Shown: positions 46,701 through 49,700, numbered from the stretch's first letter. The stretch is DNA of 64,000 nucleotides from Octopus vulgaris (GCA_951406725.2 OX597819.1:53940001-54004000), one strand, 5' to 3'. The notes: a model not told the origin generated them from the sequence alone. Program-made: numbers and translations.

Positions 46701-49700
46701 ACAACAACCTATTTTCTCTTTCTTTAAAATATAGAATTGTAGTACATTATTTACATTTGATGGGTATTTGTCCTCATCTTGTTTGTTGCTAACACGTTTC
46801 GGCTGATATACCCTCCAGCCTTCTTCATGTGTCTTGGGGAAATTTTGAACCTGGGTTCTCATTCCTAAGGTACTTTTCGATGTTATCATTATTATTATTG
46901 TTATTATTCAGGTCACTGCTTGGAATCGAACTCAGAATCTTGGGGTTAGTAGCTTGTGCTCTTAACCACTACGCCATATGCCTGTGGGTTAAGAGCGCAG
47001 GCTACTAACCCCAAGATTCCGAGTTCAATTCCAATCAGTGACCTGAACACTAACAATAATAATAATAACATCAAAAAATACCTTAGGAATAAGAACCCAG
47101 GTTCGAAATTTCCCCAAGACACCTGAAGAAGGCTGGAGGATATATCAGCTGAAACGTTGTGCTAACAACAAACAAGATGAGGACAAATACCCGCCGAATG
47201 TAAATAATGTACATAATTCCTCATCTCTTAAATATAGAACTGTATAGAATTGTAGTGCCTGGTTGACAGAAAAATAAAGTAAGGCATGAAGATGTAAATG
47301 GGACATAATAAATTTCTCAGATATATCGAGTTTCTTTCAAATATCTCGTAAAGAAATGTACTAAGGTTCTTTTTTCTTTTTTTTTCTACTGCTAAACACT
47401 TTTTCACTGTTGGCAACATAGGTATGTATGATTTGTCAAGACTTGAAAACAGACAAATCATGAAGCATATCTCTGAGTGCTGCTATTTCTAATGCTGATG
47501 ATCAGAAATATAATTTTCTAAGTAATAAACTTCACACCATTGATTGTGTGTATATATATGTGTGTATGTGTGTGTATATAAACACACACACACTTACATA
47601 CATATATATAGCTGTTGTAATTGAACATAAATAACTTCTTTGACTGAGTAAAATTCATGATTCATGACACTCAAACAGATACTTGCTGGCAATTATGTTT
47701 AATCACATACTAGATAATTGCTTAATTTGGTTAATTGCATAACTTTGTGAAGCATTAAACTGTGTAGCAACAAATCTATGTGAAATTGTTTTATTTAATT
47801 GTATATCGGTAAAAAGTAACATTAAATTGAATGTATATTTGATTTGGTAGAAATAGGTGAATCAGGAAGCTTCAGTACTTAATATTTACTAATATCAGAA
47901 GAATCAAATGTACTAATCCATTAGCATTAAAACTGGTCTCATCAGGTCCAAATATTAACTCTGTTTCATGTTGAAGCTGGCTAAGTCTGGCCTCTCACAC
48001 CTACCCTACAATGTCATTCTAAAAATAAGTGATCACATCATTAAAATCTTGAGACTACAAGATAGGGAATAATTAATTCATAAAAATGTGAATAAATAAG
48101 CATTATATTTGGCAAAGTAATCTGAATGCTAAAGAGATAAGTTACTATCATTTCAGTGAATTAATGATTACTGGTCTTCAGATTGCTGTTTATTTCTATC
48201 TTACTTTTAATTGTAATAAAATTGTTCAATAAATCTATCTTTATTGTAGAAGATTGTGAAAAGATAATCTTGAGTCCAGTGGTGATTGGACATTATTTTA
48301 TTTTTTTTTTCATTATTGATCACATTTACCTATGATTAACCCAATAATTTTTTTCTTAATCTATGTATAGGCACAGGTATGGCTGTGTGATTCAGAAACT
48401 CACTTTGCAACCATATGGTTTCATGTTCAGTGTCACTGCATGACACCTTTGCTGAGTGTCTTTTATTATAGTCCTGGGCCAACCAATGTCTTGTGAGCAA
48501 ATTTGATAGATGGAAACTGTGGGTGCCTGTCGTGTGTGTATGTATGTTGTGCGTGTGTGTCTTTGTGTTGTTGTCCCATGGCCCTGATACTGCTTCACCA
48601 AACTGGGGATTAATTTGTCCAACCAAAATCTTCAAGGCAGTGTTCTAGCATGGCTGTAGTCAAATGACTGAAACAAGTAAAATATACAGATATAATTCCC
48701 TTGTTGCTATCATTGAATAATTCAAACTCCTTGTAGGAACATATGAATCTGGGTAAGCTTAGGCAGTTGAGGAATACTGAAGGTAAATGAAAATCTCATT
48801 CTGGGTAATTAAAATGGTTGTTATGTTGCTACATATCAATGGAAACAGCTTAGACTGTGAGGAACAATTAAGTGTGCACAAAACATATTGTAAGGGGAAA
48901 ATGTTTTAAGCTTGTTTTATTATGTAAGACTCAACACGGAGGCCTACAACAAGTGCCTAGAGGAGGTAGTGCTGCCGTGGTCAAGAGGTTGGCTGCTGGA
49001 AGACCTTATGTCTAGCAAAAGGACTCTGCACCATGCCACACAAACAGGAGAACCCAGTCATAGCTGTCAGACAATTTCTGCAACTACATTACCCACTAAC
49101 ATCTGGCCACTTAACCCCCTTGATTATTATGTGTGGGGAGCAGTTGAGCTAGAGATCAACAAAACTCCTTGTAACACCAAAGATGAACTGAAGGCAAGGA
49201 TTATGGTAGCATTCAACAAGGAACCCCGCCCTCGAAGAGTTGCAAGAGATTCCAAAATCGTCTGGAGACTAGTCGAAGCCAATGGCGATTTTATTGAATA
49301 GATTTACTCTTTAGTATTTCAAGATAATATTTTTATGTAATTTACACAATGTGTTCACTGCGCTGTGTATGTATGTATATATATATATATATATATATAT
49401 ATATATATGTGTGTGCGTGTGTGTGTGTATATATATATATATATATATATATATATATATATATATACACACATACACACACTTATGTTCATATATATGT
49501 GTGTGTATATATGTATGTATCATCATCATTGTTTAACATCTGCTCTCTATGCTGGCATGAGTTGGACGGTTTGACATGGAGCTGGCTAGCAGAGAGCTGT
49601 CCAGACTCCAACTGCCTGTTGAGGCATGGTTTCTATGGCTGGATGTCCTTTCTAATGCCAACCATGTTGAGTGCTTTTAACATGCCACCAGCACAGGTGC

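Follow-up and report, generated by a model that had tools for sequence, protein, structure and literature searches.

The inverted repeat at positions 46730–47256 of the window, by which we mean the whole 64,000-nt stretch of DNA analyzed here, taken from a 2.8-Gb animal genome, probably that of an octopus to judge by its repeat families, raises the question of which unit has been copied there. The first-pass annotation had taken it for a new non-autonomous retroelement in which a tRNA-like Pol III head is fused to a Penelope-type hammerhead and which moves as an inverted dimer. The answer that we favor on balance is that the locus is an inverted pair of pseudo-LTRs (pLTRs) and that the tRNA-derived head of the parent element, about 2.87 kb long, likely set the 5' end of its RNA, most likely as a Pol III promoter.

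Much of the anatomy first described for the locus (Table 1) holds: the two inverted arms are 87% identical to each other, the flanking 14-mer has 2 matches in the whole window versus 0.10 expected, and an extension of about 30 nt, the tail, is present on the right arm alone. Each arm had also been credited with a tRNA-like head containing an A and a B box and with a hammerhead. The B box is indeed found in both arms, but the A box only in the left one, whose head has an A/B-box score of 25.3 bits (top of 40 shuffles, 15.2); conversely, the hammerhead core is intact in the right arm, whereas in the left one the first C of CUGA is replaced by A and 3 nt are gone at the cleavage site. The start codon of the ORF reads ATA in the window copy versus ATG in sister copies. 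As for the second insertion, it shares the outer ends of the first and has its own duplication, perfect over 9 nt and about 12 nt long if one mismatch is allowed, as had been claimed, but its central junction is different and it lacks CUGANGA, GAAAC and the A box; it thus provides no evidence for a fixed dimer.

Table 1. Features of the two inverted insertions, in window coordinates
Feature	Position	Strand	Detail
Target-site duplication, left copy, 14 bp	46730–46743	+	TATAGAATTGTAGT
Inverted pLTR copy, without tail	46744–46988	-	reaches the family's usual 5' end
tRNA-like head, inverted arm	46910–46983	-	A box 46976–46966, B box 46933–46922
Damaged hammerhead, inverted arm	46790–46833	-	core change and 3-nt loss at cleavage site
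Short GTGGG overlap where the arms meet head to head	46984–46988	.	
Forward pLTR copy, without the first ~16 nt of the head	46985 (about)–47244	+	
B box, forward arm	47021–47032	+	
(AAT)n spacer, forward arm	about 47052–47070	+	followed by ORF N-terminus and tail
Penelope ORF, codons 1–52	47089–47244	+	translation; similarity to P0005 N-terminus
Minimal hammerhead, core intact	47118–47163	+	predicted cleavage after 47158 (GUU)
AC-rich stretch	47164–47212	+	ends at second (tail-less) 3' terminus
Penelope tail, 31–32 nt	47213–47244	+	right arm only
Target-site duplication, right copy	47243–47256	+	TATAGAATTGTAGT; 2 nt common to element end
Second inverted insertion of the same pLTR	56202–56524	.	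different junction; both hammerheads and A box deleted
Duplication beside second insertion	56193–56201 and 56526–56534		TTCATTTTT

The left duplication and the bases preceding it (46722–46743) match the element's own tail at 14 of 15 positions, which suggests either a tail-like target preference or an older fragment at the site. The window abounds in further SINE-like families, tRNA-headed and (CAT)n-tailed (D8 and D12–D20), and tRNA-model matches lie at 26985–27056 (-) and 34123–34194 (+). The window also contains a tandem array of a 26-nt unit within a SINE-like repeat (57860–58561) and three copies of a longer dispersed repeat (1788–2432, 27957–28601 and 43606–44243), two of which are 95–98% alike.

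Each arm is, as its sequence context indicates, the pLTR of an autonomous element of the Penelope/Poseidon type and not a separate mini-element. An autonomous Penelope-like element (PLE) with this hammerhead and tail, which the first-pass annotation had proposed to look for, was found, with an ORF encoding an RT and a GIY-YIG-like domain. Its unit consists, in order, of the head, (AAT)n, ATG, the hammerhead, the AC-rich stretch, the tail, the remainder of the RT/GIY-YIG-like ORF, a short 3' UTR and the next head, an arm of about 285 nt both following and opening the ORF: (i) of 30 loci selected with the ORF's 3' part, 28 have an arm after the ORF stop, and at L026 a truncated ORF precedes an arm; (ii) at L099 and other loci, the arm reads through to the ORF in the same frame (L423 is a partial tandem); (iii) the last ~160 nt of the arm are the first ORF codons, the L105 copy being 47% identical to the N-terminus of an 847-aa homolog, P0005; (iv) no majority stop occurs across 829 ORF codon columns. 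An RVT_1 domain is present in P0001 (569 open codons) and P0002, and the C-terminus of P0001 aligns through the Pfam GIY-YIG stretch of the homolog P0071 (40%, E 2e-144); the Pfam search did not call GIY-YIG directly on P0001 or on the L026 piece. No intact full-length copy was found among the loci examined. The pLTR identity, together with the dimer as an insertion product (see below), is in our view close to certain. The hammerhead, the tail and the inversion are the Penelope hallmarks they had been taken for, the head is tRNA-like and the copies were made by Penelope proteins, as first thought; the proposed distinct non-autonomous SINE/retrozyme finds no support, since the arm belongs to an autonomous element and encodes the N-terminus of its ORF. 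The locus is thus largely the plain PLE pLTR that the first-pass annotation had set against its own proposal, but this pLTR has a tRNA-derived head.

Candidates drop as one walks upstream, from 5327 in the arm to 2888, 513 and 296, a gradient of 5' truncation. A 28-nt stretch of the tail has 2961 exact matches in the genome; given that copies diverge by 6–9%, we infer a family of roughly 20,000–40,000 copies. The family looks old, copies lying 6–9% from the column majority, and the copies are decayed descendants of few masters. Some of them, having common flanks on different contigs (L004, L019 and L025; L408 and L439), are segmental or passenger duplicates and not separate insertions. When another PLE family of this genome was sought as a control, all 30 of 30 loci returned belonged to this Penelope family, and the viral contigs searched yielded no relatives of it. 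The closest proteins (P0003–P0009 and P0154) are 53–68% identical to the family ORF. Among them, P0003, P0004, P0006 and P0154 (60–68% identical; P0154 57%, N-terminal pieces) group with the family in a quick tree of unnamed homologs; if their hosts are distant, these sequences would suggest horizontal transfer.

The hammerhead sits in the first ORF codons and consists of CUGANGA-H, a stem II of 5–6 bp, GAAA, a palindromic AACGUU and a 5-bp stem I; the right-arm motif of the window fits the min-HHR consensus as given in PMC4209133. Of 66 copies, 32 retain both core boxes unchanged, the conservation of which the first-pass annotation had made a test of its proposal. MFE folds of two family copies did not yield the hammerhead fold. 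The proposed Rfam search gave no tRNA or hammerhead match at either window copy (E<=1), nor did it at L158 or L277–L279. Among 456 arm segments, 20 begin at most 3 nt away from where cleavage is predicted, neighboring positions leading one to expect about 7; 4 of the 20 are inverted joints at the palindrome located there, and the excess is a hint of cleavage in vivo.

The tRNA-like character of the head is seen by alignment to tRNAs of this genome (z up to 8.9; of the 11 tRNA-like genes aligned, those of Arg, Cys and Thr type scored best). A model built from 10 tRNA genes of the same genome matches, over its whole length, the four better-kept heads out of four (E 0.0005–0.03); it does not match the window copy. 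ARAGORN found no tRNA in the window or in any of eight head-bearing loci, and the head does not fold into a cloverleaf; these results, like the Rfam miss, count against the Pol III reading. A and B boxes score above shuffles in 3 of 4 family copies versus 1 of 23 control windows upstream of hammerheads, 7 of which look like one family and many of which are T-rich. A cluster of 7 tRNA-Cys-like genes within 3 kb, two with changed anticodons, was seen at L221.

The 5' ends of the copies point to the same place. Among 90 forward 5' ends, 28 fall between -10 and +20 of the head start, 12 further upstream and 50 inside the arm, where some ends in the AAT tract may conceal additional head starts; the density of ends is 3.2% per nt at the head, versus 0.29% upstream and 0.12% inside the arm. 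Put otherwise, 40 copies extend as far as the head and 28 of them begin there, and 25 of 55 inverted arms stop there. Exact matches fall from 3677 in the head to 782 at 40 nt upstream, the patterns being unequal in degeneracy. Moreover, four joints, seen in a survey of 60 out of 71 loci selected with the ORF's 5' part, add the head from a purine 6–7 nt before the tRNA-like start, that is, 13–14 nt before the A box. Such a start-to-A-box spacing is a usual one in Pol III genes. Template switching may account for some of this pile-up, since the head start coincides with a 12-nt palindrome and junctions are drawn to other palindromes of the arm as well. Altogether, we consider it likely, with some assurance, that the head is the 5' end of the element RNA.

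Transcription of the whole autonomous element by Pol III is plausible, and we rate it at or just short of an even chance; an internal Pol III promoter is unusual for a protein-coding retrotransposon. Nowhere across the ~2.87-kb unit is a run of at least four T conserved on the sense strand. In the ORF, T4 runs number 0 versus 3.2 expected from synonymous re-dealing of 829 codon columns (P=0.018; P=0.034 on 723 codon columns), and only 1 of 26 control RT ORFs is free of T4, these controls being ORFs of at least 400 codons from metagenomes and contaminated genome bins, the most distant of which may not be PLEs. The deficit is modest: G4 runs are likewise absent (P=0.28), the sense strand is T-poor, and in none of six single decayed copies is the deficit significant against the codon null. 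In about 6% of each of two RNA-seq runs, reads are equal on both strands with a depth that tracks copy abundance or contig depth, 65–69% of them extend into unlike flanks, and no pile of read starts is seen at the head, the libraries being unstranded and not resolving 5' ends; this pattern fits passive read-through of old copies. Note that the Pol III reading leaves the translation of an uncapped RNA unexplained. Copies bearing the 5' part of the ORF (L382–L441) are mostly short stubs joined back to an arm, whose ends cluster about 69–82 and 115–118 nt beyond the tail; a cluster of such ends lies near two short T tracts and might reflect Pol III termination.

The same observations could come from an ordinary Penelope that took up a piece of a dead tRNA or tRNA-SINE into its pLTR, with Pol II starting nearby from a pLTR promoter or cDNA stops at the palindrome, the boxes and the loss of T runs being incidental. 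We judge this unlikely without being far-fetched. Every other feature of the element is textbook PLE, tRNA-headed SINEs are common in the window (26985, 34123), palindromes draw junctions, the T4 deficit reaches a P value of only 0.018 and the RNA-seq reads show no Pol III starts. Yet 70% of the copies extending to the head end at it, many more than at other palindromes (the largest other sharp peak comprises 10 of 456 segments, repeat-edge artefacts aside), only 5 of 90 ends lie toward the 3' side of the head, the place expected for an RT stall caused by structure, the start-to-A-box spacing fits Pol III geometry, and among the control pLTRs, many of them T-rich, A/B boxes occur in none except L278, a tandem PLE described below. 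To return to Pol III, the full scenario, a protein-coding Penelope transcribed end to end from a captured tRNA promoter, with a sense strand purged of TTTT, a capture recurring in L278 and a priming that generates tens of thousands of SINE-like copies, is put forward tentatively. In the literature searched, Repbase, Dfam and most subscription papers lying outside that search, no PLE turned up for which a tRNA-derived or Pol III head is reported; the Penelope family itself may already be catalogued, since Octopus vulgaris is credited with 30 Penelope families of recent activity and with 893 SINE families left unclassified, without structural detail in the available text (PMC13282606).

In a small sample, 54 ORF-linked versus 50 solo heads, position 69 is A or G in a ratio of 21:27 in solo heads versus 25:18 in ORF-linked ones, and a hammerhead position is A or T in a ratio of 23:76 versus 17:26; divergence is 8.1% in solo versus 8.9% in ORF-linked heads and 5.8% in both for the hammerhead region. 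No change specific to the solo heads was found among them. Because solo and ORF-linked arms have common variants and a common age, a separate SINE lineage is not seen at the sequence level, nor is a separate subfamily of solo arms, contrary to the SINE first proposed; of the traits of a tRNA-derived SINE, the family displays the A/B-box head, but neither a separate non-coding element nor a copy lineage of its own. Accordingly, we find it improbable that the ORF element is a Pol II unit and that solos with an intact head are transcribed by Pol III and re-mobilized in trans, as a true PLE-dependent SINE would be: head-starting solos do outnumber ORF-linked arms, 28 to 12, and many keep both boxes intact, but the two kinds are alike in variants and divergence, internal priming already accounts for the solos, and the RNA of the Anolis Poseidon is described as needing sequence past the RT start (PMC11167929) that solos lack.

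A different kind of derivative is a head-less one of about 276 nt that fuses the 3' part of the pLTR to ~118 nt of the ORF at one fixed junction, partly as head-to-tail repeats (L435, L436, L437 and L440; L442–L448 on contig C29 of G000). Its junction has 7 exact matches at 6 loci, all on contig C29, and the four examined differ in their flanks; it is a genuine non-autonomous, retrozyme-like offshoot, whose spread seems to have been local. L430 and L431, on contig C24, have another junction in common.

The inverted arrangement was surveyed in 90 loci, drawn from the first 100 matches to the tail along contig C1 with the last 8 and 2 others left out. An adjacent inverted copy is present in 55 of these loci and absent from 35. 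In 39 of the 55, the inverted arm is tail-less and ends 240–259 nt into the arm; the junction sides vary among the 55, 8 partners extending into the ORF, and both arms reach the head (near-full) in 10 of the 90 loci, with 10 different junctions. Of the 41 inverted insertions that are complete, 23 are flanked by duplications of at least 9 bp, as against 1 of the 35 loci without an inverted arm, the rate in shuffled pairs being 1.1%; the duplications vary in length from 9 to 15 bp, apart from one of 21 inside a TA repeat. Loose ends in reads place the two 3' termini 31–32 nt apart. The ends thus differ by the tail and the duplication varies, unlike the fixed terminal inverted repeats and fixed short duplications of a MITE or TIR transposon, and the hammerheads of the dimer lie on opposite strands, unlike the head-to-tail, same-orientation ones of a retrozyme. 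In the predicted fold, an RNA spanning the window dimer would pair over about 208 bp, so both hammerheads would be buried in it. Inverted, 5'-truncated partners and a 30–40-bp tail have been described for PLEs (PMC8557442), and two RT start sites and cleavage of both target strands for Poseidon_Ac of Anolis carolinensis (PAc; PMC11167929); by its structure, the dimer is the usual Penelope insertion product, matching these descriptions, and priming would, by analogy, occur from both target strands. That the inverted dimer itself is the mobile unit, as the first-pass annotation held, be it a fold-back retroelement or a MITE-like DNA transposon, is hardly credible: the window insertions do have common outer ends, each with a duplication, and near-full arm pairs do exist, but the inverted partner varies among the 90 loci, being absent from many, able to include ORF sequence and joined differently in all ten two-arm cases, besides the variable duplications and the opposed, mutually buried hammerheads.

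We envisage copying as that of a Penelope with a head-borne start. The transcript would begin about 6 nt before the tRNA-like sequence and, without TTTT, would continue through the ORF into the next pLTR, so that the RT start signals would be present twice. The RT-endonuclease would nick both target strands, 9–15 bp apart, and cDNA would be primed inside the RNA at two sites 31–32 nt apart, by analogy with the Poseidon of Anolis as described in PMC11167929. Priming in the first pLTR would give short head-to-tail copies and priming in the second pLTR ORF-bearing, 5'-truncated ones; cDNAs of opposite strands would then join at their far ends via microhomology, leaving, as at this locus, a forward arm with the tail and an inverted one without it.

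The element bears on how PLEs are transcribed and on the role of their hammerheads in vivo. If the Pol III reading is true, the element would be a protein-coding Pol III unit requiring cap-independent translation, its tRNA-derived promoter would spare it the need for an upstream tandem copy as promoter, and SINE-like short copies would arise from the PLE's own 5' end, a direct route from PLE to SINE. For annotation, solo arms would be easy to misfile as unclassified SINEs or MITEs.

Compared to known systems, the element resembles in layout PAc, which, as described in PMC11167929, also has a single ORF for RT with GIY-YIG at its C-terminus, a hammerhead at the ORF start, an AC-rich stretch and two 3' termini defining a tail; the available description mentions no tRNA-like head or Pol III boxes. 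The Penelope of D. virilis is reported to use an internal promoter that is LINE-like and lacks a TATA box, its 5' UTR containing an intron (PMC2377424), in place of the tRNA-like A/B-box head found here, a precedent that counts against the Pol III reading, and the U-rich 5' flank given as usual for min-HHRs (PMC4209133) is absent here. The pairing of a tRNA head with a hammerhead, first thought undescribed, has a precedent: Sm-alpha and Sj-alpha of Schistosoma are described as tRNA-derived, apparently Pol III-transcribed and hammerhead-bearing, but as non-coding, SINE-like tandem repeats with canonical hammerheads (PMC2770079, PMC6765202), whereas here both head and hammerhead belong to a PLE that encodes a protein. 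Metazoan non-LTR retrozymes (PMC7761336, PMC7229834) and Chlamys/MRC1 (PMC8557442) are, according to these sources, short repeats thought to be mobilized by PLEs, the retrozymes with hammerheads; mobilization of hammerhead repeats by PLEs has thus been proposed already (PMC7761336), and the available text of PMC7229834 does not mention Pol III. They form head-to-tail units with a sequence of their own, the retrozymes giving rise to circular RNAs, unlike the inverted pLTR pair of the window; the head-less tandem derivative of contig C29 is nearer to the retrozyme kind than is the window feature. Penelope-like ORFs, several with hammerheads, also occur in prokaryotic bins (L355–L378; Poribacteria, Stappiaceae, Buchnera, Cytophagales and others), most likely as host contamination. 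Finally, L278 (JGI1357J11328_10009043; protein P0121) is a tandem PLE of metagenome source (2815–3040 and 5606–5830; an 895-codon ORF, with a head ending in CCA) that differs from the family by its 38% amino-acid identity, its non-sister position in the quick tree and a wider A–B spacing; two T4 runs lie no more than about 370 nt from its head, which the tRNA model misses. Nevertheless, it is the only control window whose A and B boxes score above shuffles (17.9 bits versus 13.7 for the best shuffle), and it displays, in the same order as here, an A/B-box-like head right after the ORF stop, an AAT spacer and an in-frame hammerhead in the N-terminus of the ORF.
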